DNA of 64,000 bases, from positions 32,001 to 96,000 of IMG/VR virus record IMGVR_UViG_3300025372_000639. One strand, given 5' to 3'. This DNA comes from a virus. Its lineage: Duplodnaviria; Caudoviricetes. The position numbers were made by a program, and so were the translations under genes. Shown here piece by piece: positions 9,363 to 21,966 of the stretch. Position 1 is the first letter of the stretch; each line of letters opens with the position of its first letter. A model generated the notes under the pieces. It had not been told where the DNA came from, did not search any database, and saw nothing but the letters and a program-made list of their open reading frames with translations.

Positions 9363-9394
9363 GGAATGGTCCCATAATGGTATTGGAGCGGATT
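9363..9394 (+). pseudogene. 5' half of a Ser-type tRNA truncated after U33
   Basis: GGAATGG-TC-CCATAATGGTATTGG-A-GCGGA-TT, then nuclease leader. Confidence 0.65.
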
Positions 9395-9418
9395 AACGCA
9401 AAAATGCTAAATATTTGT

Positions 9419-9997
9419 ATGAAAGCAAAATACGATTGGGAATTCATTCAGTCAGAATATGACAACGGTATGTCGCATAGTCAGCTATATGTCACTTACG
9501 GAGTATCTCCTGGGGCTATACGAATGGCTATTAAACGAGGAGTCTTTAAATCAAGAAACAGAAGTGATGCGGGAAATCTGCATAACTTAACTAAAGCGCC
9601 CGTAAAACATTCTGACGAGTTTAAAGAAACGCAGAGAAAACGAATTATCTCAAGATACGAATCAGGTTGGATGCCCAAGTCAGGGCGATGCAAAAAATAT
9701 AAGCATATCTCGCCCATTGCAGGTGAAGTTTTGTTAGATGGGACTTGGGAACTTGCAGTGGCTAAGTGGTTAGATGAAATGAACTACAACTGGAAACGAA
9801 ACACAAAACGATTCCAGTATGTAAATTTGAAGAACAAAATAAGTCATTACACTCCTGACTTTTGGGTAGAAGAACTAAACGGATACTTAGAGGTCAAGGG
9901 GTATGAGACAGAATTAGACCGTTGTAAATGGTCTCAATTTGTTGACCCGTTAACCGTGTGGAAACGCAACGAGTTAATAGAAATGAAAATAATATAG
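9419..9997 (+). CDS. PD-(D/E)XK homing-type endonuclease
   Basis: YTPDF...YLEVKG motif; N-terminal HTH/NUMOD-like segment (HSDEFK). Confidence 0.8.
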   Translation: MKAKYDWEFIQSEYDNGMSHSQLYVTYGVSPGAIRMAIKRGVFKSRNRSDAGNLHNLTKAPVKHSDEFKETQRKRIISRYESGWMPKSGRCKKYKHISPIAGEVLLDGTWELAVAKWLDEMNYNWKRNTKRFQYVNLKNKISHYTPDFWVEELNGYLEVKGYETELDRCKWSQFVDPLTVWKRNELIEMKII

Positions 9998-10086
9998 TGA
10001 GTTGGATGAGTGGCTTAAATCGGCACCCTGCTAAGGTGTTTCTCTATTAATATGGGACGTGGGTTCGAATCCCACACTCACTGCCA
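9996..10086 (+). tRNA. tRNA-Ser(GCU)
   Basis: loop CTGCTAA, long variable arm, GCCA; overlaps the nuclease stop codon. Confidence 0.92.
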
Positions 10087-13742: not shown

Positions 13743-14438
13743 TTAATGTGTATAGGCTAAATTTGCAATGACCTTTGCTACATTAGAAGTAGTAAAAGGA
13801 ACATTAAGAATTAGGTGTTGACTATTATCAACCCAACTAATAGTTCTATGTGTCATGCGTGTATTGACATAATATACTTGGCCGGGTTGAATAAACATCT
13901 TTCTTCCGTCCATGATCCAATCGTATTGATCAGGACCAACATTATTTAAGAACACAATCAATCTAAAGCACTCCCGTGGCATACTAGGATGATCACGGTG
14001 TGGAACAAAGTATCCGCCTGTATTGCTTTGCACAATAAATGTACGGCCTAAAGGTTGAAACATATCAAGGAACAGGTGTAGGCTTGTACAAGCACGGTAA
14101 ACATCAGTAGGTTCATTAAATTCAAGTTCGCTAAGTTTACGACCTGCCGCATAACTTGCTTCAGCTAGACTAGGAACATCAGTATGTGTTTTATCCGGTA
14201 GGTTGGTCAATGTCAATGCTCGTCGATTGTTAGGACGATCAGTTCGTGGCAAGTAGTCAACCCAGTCGCTATCAAATTGACTGATCTCTTGCATATACTT
14301 ACCCAGGTCAATATTAATTTTTAAAGGTTCGAAAGGTCCTAAATTTAACAAGGCTAGTTCGTTTGCCATATCGCTAGGTTTTACTAATCCTGTGTATTGT
14401 GCAGACTGCCCGCTAATTCCTGGTGGTACTTTATTCAT
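13743..14438 (-). CDS. 2OG-Fe(II) oxygenase-like protein
   Basis: PHRD, YVNT..THRT. Confidence 0.6.
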   Translation of the reverse strand: MNKVPPGISGQSAQYTGLVKPSDMANELALLNLGPFEPLKINIDLGKYMQEISQFDSDWVDYLPRTDRPNNRRALTLTNLPDKTHTDVPSLAEASYAAGRKLSELEFNEPTDVYRACTSLHLFLDMFQPLGRTFIVQSNTGGYFVPHRDHPSMPRECFRLIVFLNNVGPDQYDWIMDGRKMFIQPGQVYYVNTRMTHRTISWVDNSQHLILNVPFTTSNVAKVIANLAYTH

Positions 14439-15007
14439 TTTGTTCCTGTGTCTACTTTATCTAATTGTTTAAATGCCCATGCACGTTCAGTACATTGCCA
14501 ACACCGACCGCATCTACCAATCTTTTTCTCAGTGCATGAGTGAGTTATATCTGCAAGGTCTTCCTGCCCTTCGTCAAGCATGATCTTAATTATTTCATCT
14601 TTGAGCATATGAGCAAATGGATATAGAAGTTTTGGATCAGTGCTTTCTAATTTACGTTTAGGAGCACCATTTAAGTTATCTAGTTCGGGAGGGTTTGTAT
14701 TTACTCCCATAAACAGATAATCTACTTTATGGTTTTTAAATATTTCTATAATTGCTGTTGTACTTTGCTCAGTGTGATGTGCATCAGGATTACCTACAAA
14801 AATGGTGCGAGGAATAGATAATCCAAATTTTTTATTAAAATGATCAATTATCAGGTCTGCATAAAGAGCAGAACCGTCATGCTTTGGAATTGTAAAAGGC
14901 TGTAAGTTAATTGTTGAACATTGTTTTATCAACAAGTAAAGTAATACAGCACTATCTAACCCACCGCTCAACAACAACCCATATTTTTTTGTAGGATCAA
15001 GATTCAT
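14435..15007 (-). CDS. queC: QueC-like PP-loop ATPase (7-cyano-7-deazaguanine synthase)
   Basis: LSGGLDS, THSC...CGRCWQC..R. Confidence 0.7.
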   Translation of the reverse strand: MNLDPTKKYGLLLSGGLDSAVLLYLLIKQCSTINLQPFTIPKHDGSALYADLIIDHFNKKFGLSIPRTIFVGNPDAHHTEQSTTAIIEIFKNHKVDYLFMGVNTNPPELDNLNGAPKRKLESTDPKLLYPFAHMLKDEIIKIMLDEGQEDLADITHSCTEKKIGRCGRCWQCTERAWAFKQLDKVDTGTK

Positions 15008-15707
15008 TTGGTGGGGTCCAATATATAGTCCTATCTTTAAACTTGTTAGACGAGTTTAAAATAAGATTCTTTGTTGCGGGCGGTAATTGGGATATTCTCA
15101 ATGATGATATTATCAATACAGCTAATCTAGGAATATTTTTCTTTTTAGTACTGACTGCATGTACCGCATTTATGTTGTTTAAAAAATTTGCTTGAGGTCC
15201 GGGAACTGGCACTACGGTATGCATAACGTCTTGTTGTACTTTGTCACAAATTCCTGTTCTAGGAATTACACCTAACTCTTTTCTACTATTAAATTTTTTA
15301 GTGGTAGGTTTTATTAGCAAGTCTGCATTTTCTGCATCAGAATTTTCCAGATACAATCTAAGTCCGGATTCGTCAGGATCTGCATGCCAGAACCCAATTC
15401 CTTCAAAATCAGTTCTAAGTGGTAAGAAGCAAACAACTTCTAGGTCATTTTCATCTAGCCCAAACGCTTCATAAAAGAACTTTGCTAATTCTGGGAACTG
15501 CTGAGAGAAACCGTTTAGCCATTGTGTATCCTGTCTAGCATACACAATATTCCAAGGATATCGGTTGCCCAAAAGTTGACTGGCATCTTTTTCGTGACTT
15601 ACTTCTTGACTTTGATTTTTGGCTATCCATGCCTTGATATCGGAAATATCAAATTGAGGCAAAGGAGGAATGTCCAAGGGAGTGTATAATATATCTGTAA
15701 TATCCAT
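14997..15707 (-). CDS. 2OG-Fe(II) oxygenase-like protein
   Basis: WHAD, NN..AVHAV...R. Confidence 0.5.
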   Translation of the reverse strand: MDITDILYTPLDIPPLPQFDISDIKAWIAKNQSQEVSHEKDASQLLGNRYPWNIVYARQDTQWLNGFSQQFPELAKFFYEAFGLDENDLEVVCFLPLRTDFEGIGFWHADPDESGLRLYLENSDAENADLLIKPTTKKFNSRKELGVIPRTGICDKVQQDVMHTVVPVPGPQANFLNNINAVHAVSTKKKNIPRLAVLIISSLRISQLPPATKNLILNSSNKFKDRTIYWTPPNES

Positions 15708-15750
15708 AGCAATATTTACAACGTTGTCTTTTTACAACAACCAAAAGTGG

Positions 15751-15779
15751 TTGACAGGTAAATAGAAAGACGTTACAAT
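15751..15779 (+). promoter_or_regulatory. sigma70-type promoter
   Basis: TTGACA-17-TACAAT. Confidence 0.75.
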
Positions 15780-15832
15780 ATACACATACGTTAAGCAATT
15801 AACACCGCTCTTTAAAAATGTAACGCACAATT

Positions 15833-15908
15833 GTCCCGTTCGTCTAGTGGCCTAGGACACCAGCCTTTCACGTTGGGTACACGAGTTCGAATCTCGTACG
15901 GGACGCCA
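15833..15908 (+). tRNA. tRNA-Glu(UUC)
   Basis: loop CTTTCAC, GCCA. Confidence 0.93.
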
Positions 15909-16053
15909 TTATAAAGTGTTATCAAGGTATCGTCTATGGACGCATAGACTATGCGGGTCCAACCGGCCGGGAACGGATCCTAATATAACTGCATCGGCTT
16001 TGTCAAGTTAGCTACTTCACGACTAAATTTGCACGATAGCACTTTATAATGGC
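15905..16053 (+). ncRNA. long-stem structured ncRNA
   Basis: 19-bp terminal stem GCCATTATAAAGTGTTATC/GATAGCACTTTATAATGGC; internal hairpins such as GTCTATG/CATAGAC. Confidence 0.6.
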
Positions 16054-16060
16054 AAATAAT

Positions 16061-16083
16061 GCGAGTGTGGTGAAATAGGTAGA
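16061..16083 (+). pseudogene. 5' fragment of disrupted Leu-type tRNA
   Basis: GCGAGTG-TG-GTGAAATAGGTAGA; acceptor strand pairs with CACTCGC at 16703-16709. Confidence 0.75.
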
Positions 16084-16100
16084 ATGATAAATAACATTAT

Positions 16101-16589
16101 ATGTTTACTATCTATAAAACTACAAATAAACTTAACGGACGATACTACATTGGTGTAACTAATGGTAGAAATAAATCGTACAAGGGATCAGGTACAGCGT
16201 TAAAAACAGCTATTAAGAAGTACGGTGGTAATAACTTTATTACTGAAACTTTAGAAGTGTTTGATAACGAAGAAGACATGTTCAACAGAGAGGCAGAAAT
16301 AGTCAATGAAGACTTCGTCGCCAATCCGTTAACTTATAATATGAAGTTAGGCGGCAGAGGAGGACGAGGGTCTACTAAAACCGATATACACAAAGCAAAT
16401 ATATCAAAGTCTATCTTAAAGAAGAAAGAAGAAGGTACACTTGTAAGTAACGGTGGCAGAAAACTTAAAATGTCTGTAGAAGAAATATCGAAGTTAGTTG
16501 ATACATTTGGAATAGTAGGAGCGGCTGCTCATGTAAATGAACCGTACAATACTTTCAGAAGTCGATACTATACTGCTAAAAAGAAATAA
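16101..16589 (+). CDS. GIY-YIG homing endonuclease (Seg-like)
   Basis: TIYKTTN...YYIG...YKGSG...E...YN...GG. Confidence 0.9.
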   Translation: MFTIYKTTNKLNGRYYIGVTNGRNKSYKGSGTALKTAIKKYGGNNFITETLEVFDNEEDMFNREAEIVNEDFVANPLTYNMKLGGRGGRGSTKTDIHKANISKSILKKKEEGTLVSNGGRKLKMSVEEISKLVDTFGIVGAAAHVNEPYNTFRSRYYTAKKK

Positions 16590-16590
16590 T

Positions 16591-16675
16591 GCTCCGATGA
16601 TGAAATAGGTAACCATAGCAGACTTAAAATCTGCCGCTTAACGGCTTCCCGGTTCGATTCCGGGTCGGAGCACCA
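16591..16675 (+). tRNA. tRNA-Leu(UAA)
   Basis: loop CTTAAAA, long variable arm, ACCA. Confidence 0.93.
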
Positions 16676-16687
16676 AGCATTTGCGAA

Positions 16688-16713
16688 CGGTTCGATTCCG
16701 GCCACTCGCACCA
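16688..16713 (+). pseudogene. 3' fragment of disrupted Leu-type tRNA
   Basis: CGG-TTCGATT-CCGGC-CACTCGC-ACCA. Confidence 0.75.
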
Positions 16714-16719
16714 AATACT

Positions 16720-16803
16720 GGAGTAGAAGCATCAATGGTGATGCAGCGGTCTGTAACACCGCCGCCTCTGGCACGCCCGGTTCGATCCCAGGATACTCCA
16801 CCA
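16720..16803 (+). tRNA. tRNA-Tyr(GUA)
   Basis: loop CTGTAAC, long variable arm, ACCA. Confidence 0.85.
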
Positions 16804-16806
16804 AGT

Positions 16807-17361
16807 TTAAGAAACTATATAATCTTTAAATAGATCAACAGCTTCAGACCAAGTTAATGATCTAGCATTGCTTCTCATGCTGACTGCATATCTGTCTCCA
16901 GTTCCAGTTGCTCTGTGAGTAACTGATGCATTGATTAGATATGCTCCAGGTTCCATATTGTAAACCTTGTAGGCAGGTTTTGTAACCTTACAATTGATTC
17001 GTTTATAAATTCCTGTTAAGTCTACAATTGGATCAGAAAACTCAACATCCTCGTGCAACCAATATTCTAGATTACCTGTTCCTCCATGGATCCAGTTAAT
17101 TGCATATCTAGCACGTTCGTTTGATTGATGTACTCGTACATCATCAAGGTGTACATCACCTGTGAAATCTTTTTTAAAGAATACACTTAGTATATCCCAA
17201 GGTACTCCATTAAAATTTAACCATTCCGGTTTAATGAAGTCTTTAGGATCATACACTTTGTATTGAGCTTTTCCTGTTGCATCAAATAATTTTTGATGAA
17301 CATCTGGGTTAATAACATCGATTAACGATGGTAGATTTAATCGGTAAACAAATTCTAACAT
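16807..17361 (-). CDS. 2OG-Fe(II) oxygenase/cupin-like protein
   Basis: VHLD, AINW, THRA...RYAVSMR. Confidence 0.6.
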   Translation of the reverse strand: MLEFVYRLNLPSLIDVINPDVHQKLFDATGKAQYKVYDPKDFIKPEWLNFNGVPWDILSVFFKKDFTGDVHLDDVRVHQSNERARYAINWIHGGTGNLEYWLHEDVEFSDPIVDLTGIYKRINCKVTKPAYKVYNMEPGAYLINASVTHRATGTGDRYAVSMRSNARSLTWSEAVDLFKDYIVS

Positions 17362-17381
17362 ACAAATATTTATTGCAGGTA

Positions 17382-17410
17382 TTGACAATATATAAATATC
17401 CTGCTACAAT
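17382..17410 (+). promoter_or_regulatory. sigma70-type promoter
   Basis: TTGACA-17-TACAAT. Confidence 0.7.
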
Positions 17411-17533: not shown

Positions 17534-17749
17534 ATGAAAAGTACCATTAGGCACAATGTTGATACAGATAAATGTGTTAAAAACATTGGCAACAGATTTG
17601 ATCTTGTTCTTGCCGCGGCTGTTCGTGTACGCGAATTGAAACGTGGACATAGAAAACTAACTAATGGTTATGATAATCCTACCATTACTGCTCTTAAAGA
17701 AATTGAAGAAGGCCTAGTAGGCCGTGAATTACTAAGGAAAATACGATGA
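17534..17749 (+). CDS. rpoZ: RNA polymerase omega subunit homolog
   Basis: IGNRFDLVLAAAVRVREL...PTITALKEIEEG matches omega consensus. Confidence 0.8.
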   Translation: MKSTIRHNVDTDKCVKNIGNRFDLVLAAAVRVRELKRGHRKLTNGYDNPTITALKEIEEGLVGRELLRKIR

Positions 17750-17904
17750 CCTGTAGAGGATACGATGCCAAGGCAGTTAAGGTGCCTAAAAGTGTAAAAC
17801 GAGTAGCGGCTGCATATCTTGACAATCATGCTCGTGGCGAATTTATTCGTAGCTATGTTCGAATCTTAGAAGAACAATCTAGATCTTATAAGAGAGAAAA
17901 ATAA
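17746..17904 (+). CDS. small hypothetical protein (52 aa; not in ORF track)
   Basis: ATGA and TAATG coupling with both neighbours. Confidence 0.55.
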   Translation: MTCRGYDAKAVKVPKSVKRVAAAYLDNHARGEFIRSYVRILEEQSRSYKREK

Positions 17905-18182
17905 TGGGCGACGGCGGCAAAGGGTCGGCGCCAAGACCATTCAGTGTAAGCCAAGAAACTTTTGGCAATAACTTTGACGCAATTTTTAGAAAGAATAAAG
18001 AAATGACACCAAGTGTTGAACAAATGAAAAAAGGTACTTGCGGTTGCGGTCGTAGCCCAACTGGCGATTGTATCGGTTGGCATAGTCTAACCCAAGAACA
18101 ATTTCAGCGAGCACAGGCTGCTTGGCTAGAAGAAGAATTTCGCAAAGACAACGAAGTTCAAGATAGTTCACAAGGTGGTTAA
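17904..18182 (+). CDS. CDGSH-like Fe-S/Zn finger protein
   Basis: CGCGRSPTGDCIGWH. Confidence 0.6.
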   Translation: MGDGGKGSAPRPFSVSQETFGNNFDAIFRKNKEMTPSVEQMKKGTCGCGRSPTGDCIGWHSLTQEQFQRAQAAWLEEEFRKDNEVQDSSQGG

Positions 18183-20133: not shown

Positions 20134-20169
20134 CGGTGTGTAGCTCAGCCTGGTAGAGCTCCTGGTTTG
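20134..20169 (+). pseudogene. 5' half of tRNA-Pro broken in the anticodon
   Basis: CGGTGTGTAGCTCAGCCTGGTAGAGCTCCTGGTTTG followed by non-tRNA sequence. Confidence 0.8.
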
Positions 20170-20269
20170 ACGTTGTGCTGATTTTAAATAACAATGGTCG
20201 TCAATAATGCGGTAATAAATAAGTGTTATTGGTCCTGTAAGGATAGATAGTTGTGCCCTAATTTTATTT

Positions 20270-20288
20270 CGGACATTAGCGCAGTCTG
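20270..20288 (+). pseudogene. second 5' fragment of a Pro-type tRNA
   Basis: CGGACAT-TA-GCGCAGTCTG, typical tRNA-Pro start. Confidence 0.6.
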
Positions 20289-20331
20289 ATTGAGAAAATC
20301 TCGTTTTTGTATCGCTATACTAAATAGTTAT

Positions 20332-20814
20332 ATGAAAAACAGAATAACAAAACCTGGATTAATAGCAATGAATCGCAAGATAGGTTGCGTACATTGTTCG
20401 AAAAAAACTACAATAGGTAATATAAAGAAACATGAAAAATCATGTTATTTAAATCCTACTAATGTAGTAGAGTGTTTAGTATGTAGTAAGCCAATAAAGA
20501 ACTATAAAGAATCAAAAGGTACTTGTAGTCGTAGTTGCGCCAATAAACACTTTAGAAGTGGTGAAGACAATGGTAACTGGAAAGGTGAAAACTACCAATC
20601 AATTTGTTTCCTTTATCACGAAAAAAAGTGCATAGTATGCGGCGAGGATAAGATTGTAGCAGTTCATCATTATGATCATAATCATGAGAACAATGATCCT
20701 AACAATTTAGTTCCGCTGTGTCCTACACATCATAGTTATGTACATAGTCGTTATGCTATTGAAGTACAACCTACAATAGATGAGTATGTTAAGCAATTTC
20801 TCCGTATGGCGTAA
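20332..20814 (+). CDS. HNH endonuclease
   Basis: CSRSC, NGNWKG, CIVCG...VHHYDHN..NN...NLVPLCPTHH. Confidence 0.88.
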   Translation: MKNRITKPGLIAMNRKIGCVHCSKKTTIGNIKKHEKSCYLNPTNVVECLVCSKPIKNYKESKGTCSRSCANKHFRSGEDNGNWKGENYQSICFLYHEKKCIVCGEDKIVAVHHYDHNHENNDPNNLVPLCPTHHSYVHSRYAIEVQPTIDEYVKQFLRMA

Positions 20815-20875
20815 CCTGGTAGCGTCCATGCTTTGGGAGCATGTGGTGAAGGTTCAAATCCTTCTATGGAGACCA
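20800..20875 (+). tRNA. tRNA-Pro(UGG)
   Basis: loop TTTGGGA, ACCA; first 15 nt overlap the HNH ORF end. Confidence 0.9.
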
Positions 20876-21006: not shown

Positions 21007-21080
21007 CGCGGGGAGGGTGGTCACCACACCGGTCTCATAAGCCAGGTGCATCGGCAGTTCGAATCTGTCCCCCGCATCCA
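21007..21080 (+). tRNA. initiator-like tRNA-Met(CAU) with short D-arm
   Basis: C1:A72 mismatch, CGCGGGG start, loop CTCATAA. Confidence 0.7.
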
Positions 21081-21099
21081 TTTTATCAGTCTATATAAC

Positions 21100-21966
21100 A
21101 TGTTAATTTATGTAATCAAGGGTCCGTCAAAATTAATACCCGATCAAGAATTTAGCATGTTAAAAGAAAGTTTTAACAAAAAAGGTATTCATTGTATAGA
21201 CTTTCGTATAGAAGATTTAAATCTTGAAATTATCGACTCAAAACTACTGATCAACGGAGGAAGCACTCCTTTACCCGATTTAGTATTAATACGTAATCCT
21301 ATTTTATTTAAAAAAGATATAAAAAAATTTGAAGACGTTGGCATTCCGTGCGTTAATTCGAGCACTGCTATTCAAAATAGTAGAATGAAATTAGACGCCG
21401 CAAATATATTAAACGATCATCAAGTACCAGTTCCTAAAACAATACCGTTTACTGAAAATTTAAATGACATTGTATCAAGTATTGGATTTCCTTTTATTAT
21501 AAAACCGTACCCTAGTTCATTAGGATTAGATGTTTGGTTATGCAGGAATGAAGAAGATTTTTTTAAATTTCTACCAAATGCAAATAAAATATCTTCAGGA
21601 CAAAAATGGTTGGTTCAAGAATTTATAGAACACCGATATAAAGAAGTGGTTAGGTCTTTTGTAATAGATCACAAAGTAGTATTTGCTTTGCATAAAACTT
21701 ACTCGCCCGAAGATGTATTTGTCAACACATCAATACTGAACAGAAAATTTTATCCTATCACTGATGACCTTATAAATATTTCTATAAAAACAACCAAGGC
21801 ATTAAATATCGAAATAGCTGGTATTGATTTATTGTATGACAAAGACGGTATGAAAGTATGTGAGGTAAATTGTTCTCCATTCTTTATACGTGCAGTTGAT
21901 ACACATCCTGCTCTAAATGTAGCAGATATTATTGTTGATTATGTATCAGATCGATATTTAAAATAA
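21100..21966 (+). CDS. RimK-like ATP-grasp ligase
   Basis: VPVPKT, GFPFIIKP, LVQEFI, AGIDLL...VCEVN.SP. Confidence 0.8.
   Translation: MLIYVIKGPSKLIPDQEFSMLKESFNKKGIHCIDFRIEDLNLEIIDSKLLINGGSTPLPDLVLIRNPILFKKDIKKFEDVGIPCVNSSTAIQNSRMKLDAANILNDHQVPVPKTIPFTENLNDIVSSIGFPFIIKPYPSSLGLDVWLCRNEEDFFKFLPNANKISSGQKWLVQEFIEHRYKEVVRSFVIDHKVVFALHKTYSPEDVFVNTSILNRKFYPITDDLINISIKTTKALNIEIAGIDLLYDKDGMKVCEVNCSPFFIRAVDTHPALNVADIIVDYVSDRYLK

Follow-up and report, generated by a model that had tools for sequence, protein, structure and literature searches.

Selfish nucleases that settle in conserved genes are known to spare their carrier in one of three ways, by riding in a self-splicing intron, by riding in an intein, or by taking up a position beside the gene. 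In intronless homing, as practised by SegF, SegG and MobE, a free-standing nuclease cuts genomes that lack it and co-converts the flanks, while the donor escapes because its own sequence near the site is different. Such genes lie between other genes, and their target stays whole. The locus that we describe here, positions 16061-16713 of a 64,000-nucleotide stretch of phage DNA (the window; bases 32001-96000 of the 128,309-bp IMG/VR record IMGVR_UViG_3300025372_000639), instead destroys its target and brings a substitute: the gene for a SegB-like GIY-YIG nuclease and an intact tRNA-Leu(UAA) gene stand together between the two ends of a second, broken tRNA-Leu(UAA) gene. Overall, we think it probable that this is a composite homing cassette, in which nuclease and tRNA-Leu(UAA) have been welded together inside another tRNA-Leu(UAA), destroying and replacing the target. 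The locus thereby suggests a fourth way for a selfish nuclease to spare its carrier, one fit for genes of very small size, in which the gene is wrecked and a spare is supplied.

Other mobile elements also make use of tRNA genes. Integrase-encoding islands and prophages enter tRNA genes and restore the 3' end, and in both cases the tRNA gene is a conserved landing site and the element keeps a working tRNA; the element in the window, however, has neither an integrase nor an att-type repeat, supplies a complete and different tRNA, and is proposed to spread via break repair. The same tRNA species is habitually targeted by the group I intron known from the anticodon loop of tRNA-Leu(UAA) in cyanobacteria and plastids, but the insert in the window has no ribozyme, and splicing cannot restore its tRNA. 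The hybrid atp6 gene of Allomyces is a case of partial gene duplication. Similar cases in fungal mitochondria, where C-terminal duplicates of atp6 and cob lie beside GIY-YIG or LAGLIDADG open reading frames (ORFs), are the nearest concept that we found (PMC6279837). In these, as here, the nuclease ORF comes with host-gene sequence that assumes the role of the original, whose displaced piece stays beside it as a remnant; the fungal cases concern organelle protein genes and replace the C-terminal part only, whereas the window has a whole tRNA gene replaced, remnants on both sides, and evident transfer between unrelated phage genomes.

The closest described protein is SegB of phage T4, which belongs to the same N-terminal nuclease fold family (40% identity, residues 4-141; PHROG 314). 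SegB targets tRNA genes and drags neighbouring tRNA genes along in crosses (PMC2330249), and a 2026 paper reports SegB homologs to be enriched near tRNAs of many isotypes and able to amplify tRNA genes (PMC13096335). In the T4-like phage PP01, segB (CDS 689-1354, 221 aa) sits in a tRNA cluster between an intact tRNA-Met and an intact tRNA-Arg, 3 nt before the latter, and is preceded by CATAAATA and a Shine-Dalgarno sequence and by no stump. The protein in the window differs in being 162 aa long, in being nested in a broken tRNA gene, and in belonging to a subfamily tied to tRNA-Leu D-loop stumps; in addition, its cargo substitutes for the destroyed gene with the same isoacceptor. The linkage of SegB to tRNA genes is therefore already known, and it is the nested layout with its own replacement gene that we did not find in print: our literature search returned no case in which a broken tRNA gene encloses a nuclease gene together with a replacement tRNA of the same isotype, although the supplement of PMC13096335, with its 386 segB homologs, might contain cases.

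The anatomy of the locus can be read to the base. The 5' arm (16061-16083, on the plus strand like every part of the composite) preserves the opening 23 nt of the old tRNA-Leu(UAA): the 5' strand of the acceptor stem, U8/G9, the 5' strand of the D-stem, and the D-loop through GGTAGA. An inserted cassette of 604 bp (16084-16687) then takes the place of about 36-38 nt of the old tRNA. Its first 17 nt, between the 5' arm and the ORF start, contain the motif GATAAATA (16086-16093, 7 nt upstream of the ATG), which we take to resemble a T4-type late promoter. The gene that follows (16101-16589) encodes the nuclease of 162 aa, recognised by homology searches as a SegB-like GIY-YIG homing endonuclease, and a single base (T, 16590) separates its stop codon from the cargo, an intact tRNA-Leu(UAA) at 16591-16675 (ARAGORN; Rfam tRNA, 54.8 bits). 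The 12-nt spacer agcatttgcgaa (16676-16687) travels with the cargo tRNA; it is identical in L184 and present as a 13-nt variant in L091, two loci that are taken up below. The 3' arm (16688-16713) is the last 26 nt of the old tRNA-Leu(UAA), with 3 nt of T-stem (three of the five bases of the 5' strand are left), the T-loop, the 3' strands of the T-stem and acceptor stem, and ACCA. Its CACTCGC pairs with the GCGAGTG at 16061 in 7/7 positions before the ACCA, as the first-pass annotation, made from the sequence alone, had observed; every element indeed lies where that annotation placed it. Compared with intact members of its family, the old gene lacks the D-stem 3' strand, the anticodon arm (whose absence had also been remarked), the variable arm and two bases of the T-stem, so that the cassette does wreck its target as proposed. 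The old and new tRNAs have TGAAATAGGTA in common, and the right-hand deletion end of the old gene falls immediately 5' of GGTTCGATTCC.

Three other accounts of this anatomy were tried and rejected. A group I intron with an ORF finds no counterpart in an Rfam scan (E<=1) of 16084-16690, where the noncoding parts measure 17, 1 and 12 nt; the insert is accordingly free of a detectable ribozyme, and the annotation of the cassette as intronless stands. A split or permuted functional tRNA would need pieces that together make up every arm of the old tRNA, and the parts named above as lacking are missing from the window altogether. An assembly artefact is excluded by the presence of the composite in the IMG/VR record, in L184 and in contigs from several runs.

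The broken gene has intact relatives. A viral tRNA-Leu(UAA) family found in 56 IMG/VR contigs begins with precisely the 23-mer of the 5' arm, a sister allele beginning GCGACTG occurs in 112 IMG/VR stretches, and the 26-mer of the 3' arm is the exact end of 23 intact family members. When both alleles are pooled and the short locus L325 is left out, 168 copies have at least 90 nt downstream, and of these 159 are intact (155 by a strict tRNA-Leu(UAA) test and 4 by eye), 7 have an intron-like insert and 2 a nuclease cassette. An intact ancestral gene, also a Leu(UAA), thus exists, as the first-pass annotation had supposed; its site is occupied by a cassette in L091, L184 and the window. The 26-mer has no match in the prokaryote genomes of 185,579 species, which is why we regard the old tRNA as a viral tRNA family. 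Freshwater metagenome contigs aligned on the window pass directly from 16083 to 16688, skipping 604 bases and carrying 36-38 other bases in between; these are the missing middle of the tRNA, and only the tRNA, not the flanks, is common to those contigs and the window.

The composite has also moved between unrelated contexts. Locus L184, a metagenome contig of 3,455 bp, codes for a nuclease 99% identical to that of the window, and its positions 1998-2653 match window positions 16058-16713 at 98.3% identity over 656 bp, while the rest of L184 has no match in the window or the 128-kb record by blastn or tblastx. Over the 60 nt beyond each end of the composite, only 13/60 and 12/60 positions are identical. 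The match is confined to the composite, and the homology therefore begins and ends at the ends of the old tRNA gene, stopping on the right at 16713. Of the 11 differences, nine lie in the ORF (7 synonymous, 2 non-synonymous), one in the cargo D-loop and one in the 3' arm (C/T at 16705). The window context and the L184 context were each recovered again in separate freshwater metagenome runs. Taken together, these comparisons argue for a recent transfer of the composite between unrelated contexts, bounded by the ends of the old tRNA, and they bear out the earlier proposal that the cassette is mobile.

A third composite, in locus L091 on a 64.6-kb viral contig, has an HNH-like nuclease in the slot. 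Its 5' part is of the GCGACTG allele, extends slightly deeper into the old tRNA and is followed by TATAAATA. The ORF of 146 codons matches endonuclease and HNH PHROGs (E about 1e-6 to 1e-7) and has no match in Pfam; by eye, an HNH motif can be made out. Beyond it come the same cargo tRNA, the 13-nt version of the spacer, and a 3' arm ending in CAGTCGC-ACCA, and over cargo, spacer and 3' arm L091 and L184 are 94% identical (139 nt). L091 and the window thus have the right junction in common, whereas the left junction and the nuclease are different, so that either the GIY-YIG or the HNH nuclease may have made the shared right junction; serial invasion of the site is likely. The 26-nt 3' arms of the window, L184 and L091 are exact copies of three natural alleles (23, 9 and 16 of the 168 copies), and the 5' arms fit the same alleles as the 3' arms, the GCGACTG of L091 covarying with CAGTCGC. 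Such allele-matched arms are what repeated entry into different resident alleles predicts, and the broken tRNA ends seem to serve as landing pads for jumps between unrelated phages.

The identity of the nuclease as a GIY-YIG enzyme, which the first-pass annotation had assigned, is clear by PHROG and tblastn comparison, though not by the Pfam cut-off. The protein belongs to PHROG 314 ('homing endonuclease', E=9e-36), and tblastn matched 918 phage records, of which the best long matches are annotated SegB or homing endonucleases of T4-like phages; against Pfam PF01541 (GIY-YIG) it scores 19.1 bits, under the 22.6-bit cut-off. The best SegB alignment covers 85% of the query, and no SegB counterpart was detected for the last 20 residues. 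The single sequence found no relative in viral contigs, where a family alignment was required; a scan with that alignment gave 205 relatives in viral contigs and 307 in metagenome contigs, of which 80 each were retained. A search of 5.8 billion proteins returned 22 relatives, 17 of them full-length, at 47-90% identity, and 32 columns are invariant among the 17. The GIY/YIG motif pair, about 10 residues apart, reads IYKTTNKLNGRYYIG, with Y5 nearly invariant and Y16 and G18 invariant in these homologs. E64 and N80 are likewise invariant and E66 nearly so, and their positions match in an alignment with I-TevI, where we take the catalytic counterparts of the family Glu and Asn to be E75 and N90. 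The family profile matches the I-TevI catalytic domain (1MK0/1LN0) weakly, over positions 3-83 (E=0.04).

What ties this family to its site is the stump of tRNA-Leu that precedes it. We counted loci, the window included, whose homolog could be aligned across 140 aa or more with an identity of at least 45% (n=21, 19 of them with upstream sequence). A tRNA-Leu D-arm stump ends 7-20 nt upstream of the ATG in 18 of these 19, and the motif NATAAAT[AT] follows the stump in 18/19 homologous loci. Such a stump pattern was counted 145 times outside called tRNA-Leu genes in 1.33 Mb of sequence, a frequency of about 0.005 for each stretch of 45 nt. All 18 stumps are of Leu type, and their sequences vary among loci. 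An intact tRNA-Leu (UAA or UAG) stands directly after the stop codon, or overlaps it, in the window, L184, L185, L186/187, L188, L190, L196, L199 and L202. One of these, L190, is a second nested case, with a stump beginning GCCCGGG, a Leu(UAG) cargo and a degenerate 3' remnant ending in CCTGGGC-ACCA, and in L196 and L199 the acceptor strand of the stump is that of the intact tRNA that follows, with no 3' remnant. On this comparison of sequences, the stump-plus-nuclease arrangement appears to be a trait of the whole nuclease family. The layout is wider than the first-pass annotation supposed: an HNH version exists in L091, and stumps occur family-wide.

A separate observation concerns the junction of the two genes. 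In L188, L190, L196 and a further cassette of the window (20800-20814), the stop codon of the nuclease ORF falls within the cargo tRNA's opening bases or abuts them. With the stop so placed, processing by RNase P would cut the mRNA at or before its stop, which could hold nuclease expression down; the arrangement also ties nuclease and tRNA inseparably together.

The cargo is, as had been claimed for it, a complete tRNA of the same isoacceptor as the old gene. Its acceptor stem is GCUCCGA/UCGGAGC and its D-stem AUG/CAU, and it is the sole tRNA-Leu(UAA) among the 40 tRNAs of the 128-kb record. The first 22 nt of the cargo occur in 7 IMG/VR contigs, in 6 of which the tRNA is free-standing, with neither a preceding nuclease gene nor a trailing fragment of the old tRNA. 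The window's own 24-mer from the inner tRNA has no matches, on account of a private C at 16613: at this last D-loop position the window cargo has C, whereas L184, L091 and all 6 free-standing copies have A. In L266 and L269, about 17-22 nt immediately 5' of the free cargo (caatgtagagaaataat) are identical to the last bases of the L091 HNH ORF, which hints either that the HNH gene first settled beside the cargo tRNA in its native place or that these sites have lost the HNH gene.

In the tRNAs linked to nucleases the D-stem stands out. Positions 10-12 read GAG or ATG in 8/9 unique nuclease-linked tRNA-Leu genes, against 18/92 in a background of 92 unique tRNA-Leu genes from loci that were not fetched through the Leu pattern (Fisher one-sided p=5.8e-5, an optimistic value, as the D-stem classes were picked post hoc and the genes compared are not independent of one another). 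At these positions the stumps have G[T/C]G, and in L196 and L199 the linked tRNA and the stump have the same acceptor and a different position 11. We treat the possibility that such D-stem differences mark cargo immunity as a lead, not as proof.

The mechanism that we propose for the composite cassette runs as follows. In a mixed infection, the nuclease would cut cassette-free copies of the resident tRNA-Leu gene, most likely in the D-arm, because the stump of every relative ends in the D-loop. The break would be resected and then repaired from the cassette-bearing genome, and the sole homology required would be the 23-nt and 26-nt ends of the tRNA gene, which would permit entry into unrelated phages that carry this tRNA. 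The target tRNA gene would lose its middle and die, and the cargo, with the same anticodon but a different acceptor and D-stem, would take over decoding without being a substrate itself. The sequences themselves show the anatomy, the intact ancestor, the movement between contexts, the arms matched to particular alleles and the tie of the family to tRNA-Leu stumps; that the break is made by this nuclease, that it falls in the D-arm and that the cargo is immune are points we infer.

A number of observations weigh against this proposal. Homology arms of 23 nt and 26 nt are short for recombination, and the motif that T4 SegB itself recognises is in the T-loop, its cuts falling at the 3' ends of tRNAs and not in the D-arm (PMC2330249). 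The slot in L091 is filled by an HNH nuclease behind a different left junction; L189 has no stump and no NATAAAT[AT] motif; in L191-L200 the gene takes its stump along and has no tRNA behind it, an identical truncated stump being found in two contexts (L191/192/200 and L193/195/197); and the linked tRNA of L202 has the common GTG. The family alignment has no invariant Arg at the GIY-YIG position (residues 17-45). The conserved Arg that follows the YIG motif in I-TevI is, we presume, R27, and the invariant K39 might substitute for it here. Finally, the first-pass annotation expected relatives with an intact GCGAGTG tRNA-Leu, and this proved right for the tRNA family; an intact copy with the window's own flanks was not found among the 56+112 IMG/VR matches or in four metagenome runs (X5-X8), which as contigs cannot show absence, and the record itself is only about 31% complete. 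The surrounding sequence was searched for kin as well. Megablast of 15700-17100 against phage genomes gave no match and blastn just 5% stretches covering single tRNAs; the flanking protein at 16807-17388 has no relative in viral contigs; and tblastn of 31 window ORFs against the 56 old-tRNA loci returned distant, non-syntenic relatives only. Weak support for a loose syntenic link to the old-tRNA loci comes from the 92-aa ORF at 17904-18182, a homolog of which shares the strand of the old tRNA-Leu in 28/167 loci and is downstream of it in 23 of these, as in the window.

The most serious competitor, which we nonetheless consider unlikely, is that the nuclease acts as T4 SegB does: it would recognise T-loops generically and make relaxed cuts near tRNA 3' ends, the breaks would stimulate recombination wherever conserved tRNA sequence gives homology, the stump would be a frozen scar, and the cargo would not be immune. 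The recognition site of SegB consists of GGTTCRANTCC and CCA, and the enzyme cuts ten tRNA genes (PMC2330249), the enrichment of SegB homologs near tRNAs of many isotypes fits such behaviour (PMC13096335), the right-hand deletion end lies just 5' of GGTTCGATTCC, and the identical truncated stump in two contexts is what a frozen scar would look like. Yet the stumps vary, some of them agreeing with the acceptor of the tRNA-Leu at their own locus (L196, L199, and the window compared with L091), a pattern that repeated entry at one Leu position fits better than one frozen scar does. All 18 of 18 stumps are of Leu type, the 40% identity to SegB is limited to residues 4-141 of 162 and leaves the C-terminal end unmatched, and both cargo and arm retain perfect T-loop motifs and persist all the same.

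Much less probable still, in our view, is a dead relic, with an inactive nuclease and a composite that is inherited vertically or moved passively by mosaic recombination of phages at tRNA genes. The sub-threshold Pfam score and the lack of an invariant Arg would suit it, and tRNAs are far better conserved than their flanks, so that breakpoints at tRNA ends are possible without a nuclease. But the ORF shows 7 synonymous against 2 non-synonymous changes relative to L184, its family keeps 32 invariant columns across 17 members with full-length ORFs in all listed relatives, and an identity of 98.3% inside the tRNA ends against about 21% outside them points to recent transfer. The outer fragments might, lastly, be functional in themselves, as an acceptor/T-arm minihelix that steers processing of the nuclease mRNA and cargo or limits their expression. 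We give this very little credence. The compensating pairs between the window (GCGAGTG/CACTCGC) and L091 (GCGACTG/CAGTCGC), along with CGG/CCG against CAG/CTG in the T-stem, are of the kind that such a structure would produce; each variant, however, reproduces exactly a natural allele that is common among intact copies of the tRNA, and no selection for pairing of the fragments is needed to explain it. The T-stem, moreover, is down to 3 pairs, the L190 remnant is degenerate, and most family members are without any 3' remnant.

If we return to the composite homing cassette as the preferred reading, the window itself offers two further loci of similar build. At 9363-10086, a Ser-type tRNA 5' stump is followed by TAAATA, an ORF and a tRNA-Ser(GCU) that overlaps the TAG stop; the ORF (9422-9997) matches endonuclease and resolvase PHROGs (E=1.9e-13) and is a third nuclease family in a like layout. 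At 20134-20875, the 5' half of a tRNA-Pro, broken in the anticodon loop, precedes a second Pro-type stump, TAAATA and an HNH ORF (PHROG), whose last codons and stop lie within an intact tRNA-Pro(UGG). TAAATA stands 5-7 nt upstream of the ATG in all three nuclease ORFs, which have no Shine-Dalgarno sequence. The motif ATAAATAA is rare: shuffling predicts 11.7 copies, and the window has 4 (16087, 20215, 29351, 60676), of which two are located in nuclease cassettes.

We therefore put forward, tentatively and in the knowledge that it could well prove too broad, the hypothesis that gene-replacement homing is a general and undescribed strategy, in which nucleases from three or more unrelated families (GIY-YIG, HNH and PD-(D/E)XK-like) target and destroy a phage tRNA gene and bring, joined to their stop codon, a resistant tRNA of the same isotype, and that selfish nucleases are the main engine renewing the tRNA arrays of large phages. 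Were it general, a few dozen conserved bases at tRNA ends would be universal landing pads across unrelated phages. If the locus does show a fourth way of sparing the carrier, that way would account for phage tRNA clusters that are full of nuclease genes and tRNA stumps, and it would give tRNA genes a route between unrelated phages. It would, in addition, provide a compact natural system, of about 600 bp, for studying the minimum length of homology arms in homing. Regardless of its generality, the locus points to a nuclease subfamily whose predicted target is the D-arm of tRNA-Leu genes, and to a simple and, it seems, recurring means by which selfish nucleases could inhabit small genes that are essential.

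More distant SegB-like genes, with an N-terminal match only (L104/L208, L204/L206/L207, L217, L164), are preceded by 5' pieces of non-Leu tRNAs, some of which extend to the anticodon loop, and the stump-plus-nuclease arrangement may be widespread beyond the Leu subfamily. In other contigs, distant SegB-like genes have a hairpin, TATAAATA and AGGAGG in place of TAAATA.

The seven intron-like inserts of the old tRNA family are a different matter. They sit after GACTT in the anticodon loop (L002, 647-837; L049, L275, L281, L283, L301 and L307), and the insert of L002 fits the group I intron model RF00028 from end to end (40.9 bits, E=3.7e-9, under the gathering score of 50). To judge by this match, the inserts are apparently cyanobacterial-style tRNA-Leu introns in phage tRNA genes.

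The setting of the composite is that of a large freshwater phage. CheckV puts the completeness of the 128,309-bp record at 31%, which makes the window a piece of a very large phage, and by ARAGORN the whole record has 40 tRNA genes, of which 23 fall within the window's first 22 kb. The neighbours of the composite, both on the plus strand and outside the mobile unit, are tRNA-Glu(UUC) upstream (15833-15908; ARAGORN, Rfam) and tRNA-Tyr(GUA) downstream (16720-16803; Rfam, 26.9 bits). A sigma-70-like promoter on the same strand (TTGACA-17-TACAAT, 15751-15779), recognised by consensus match only, probably drives the unit of tRNA-Glu, composite and tRNA-Tyr. The tRNA-Tyr was missed by ARAGORN, falls below the 29-bit Rfam cut-off and has a G7/A66 mismatch in its acceptor; its 27-nt start is present in 47 IMG/VR contigs, which marks it as a real viral tRNA family. 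The 150-nt spacer between tRNA-Glu and the composite (15909-16060) is bounded by a 10-nt inverted repeat (ttataaagtg ... cactttataa), and in many other contigs similar gtattaaagcat ... atgctttaatac elements, followed by TTGACA/TATAAT promoters, lie upstream of tRNA-Tyr. The tRNA array also holds a QueC-like protein (14435-15007; Pfam E=1.3e-9), a RimK-type ATP-grasp protein (21046-21966; E=1e-23) and a further HNH endonuclease (2047-2625; PHROG E=1e-24). A small ORF at 17534-17749, which adjoins the Cys-rich 92-aa ORF at 17904-18182, has what we take, by eye, to be an RNA polymerase omega-like motif.

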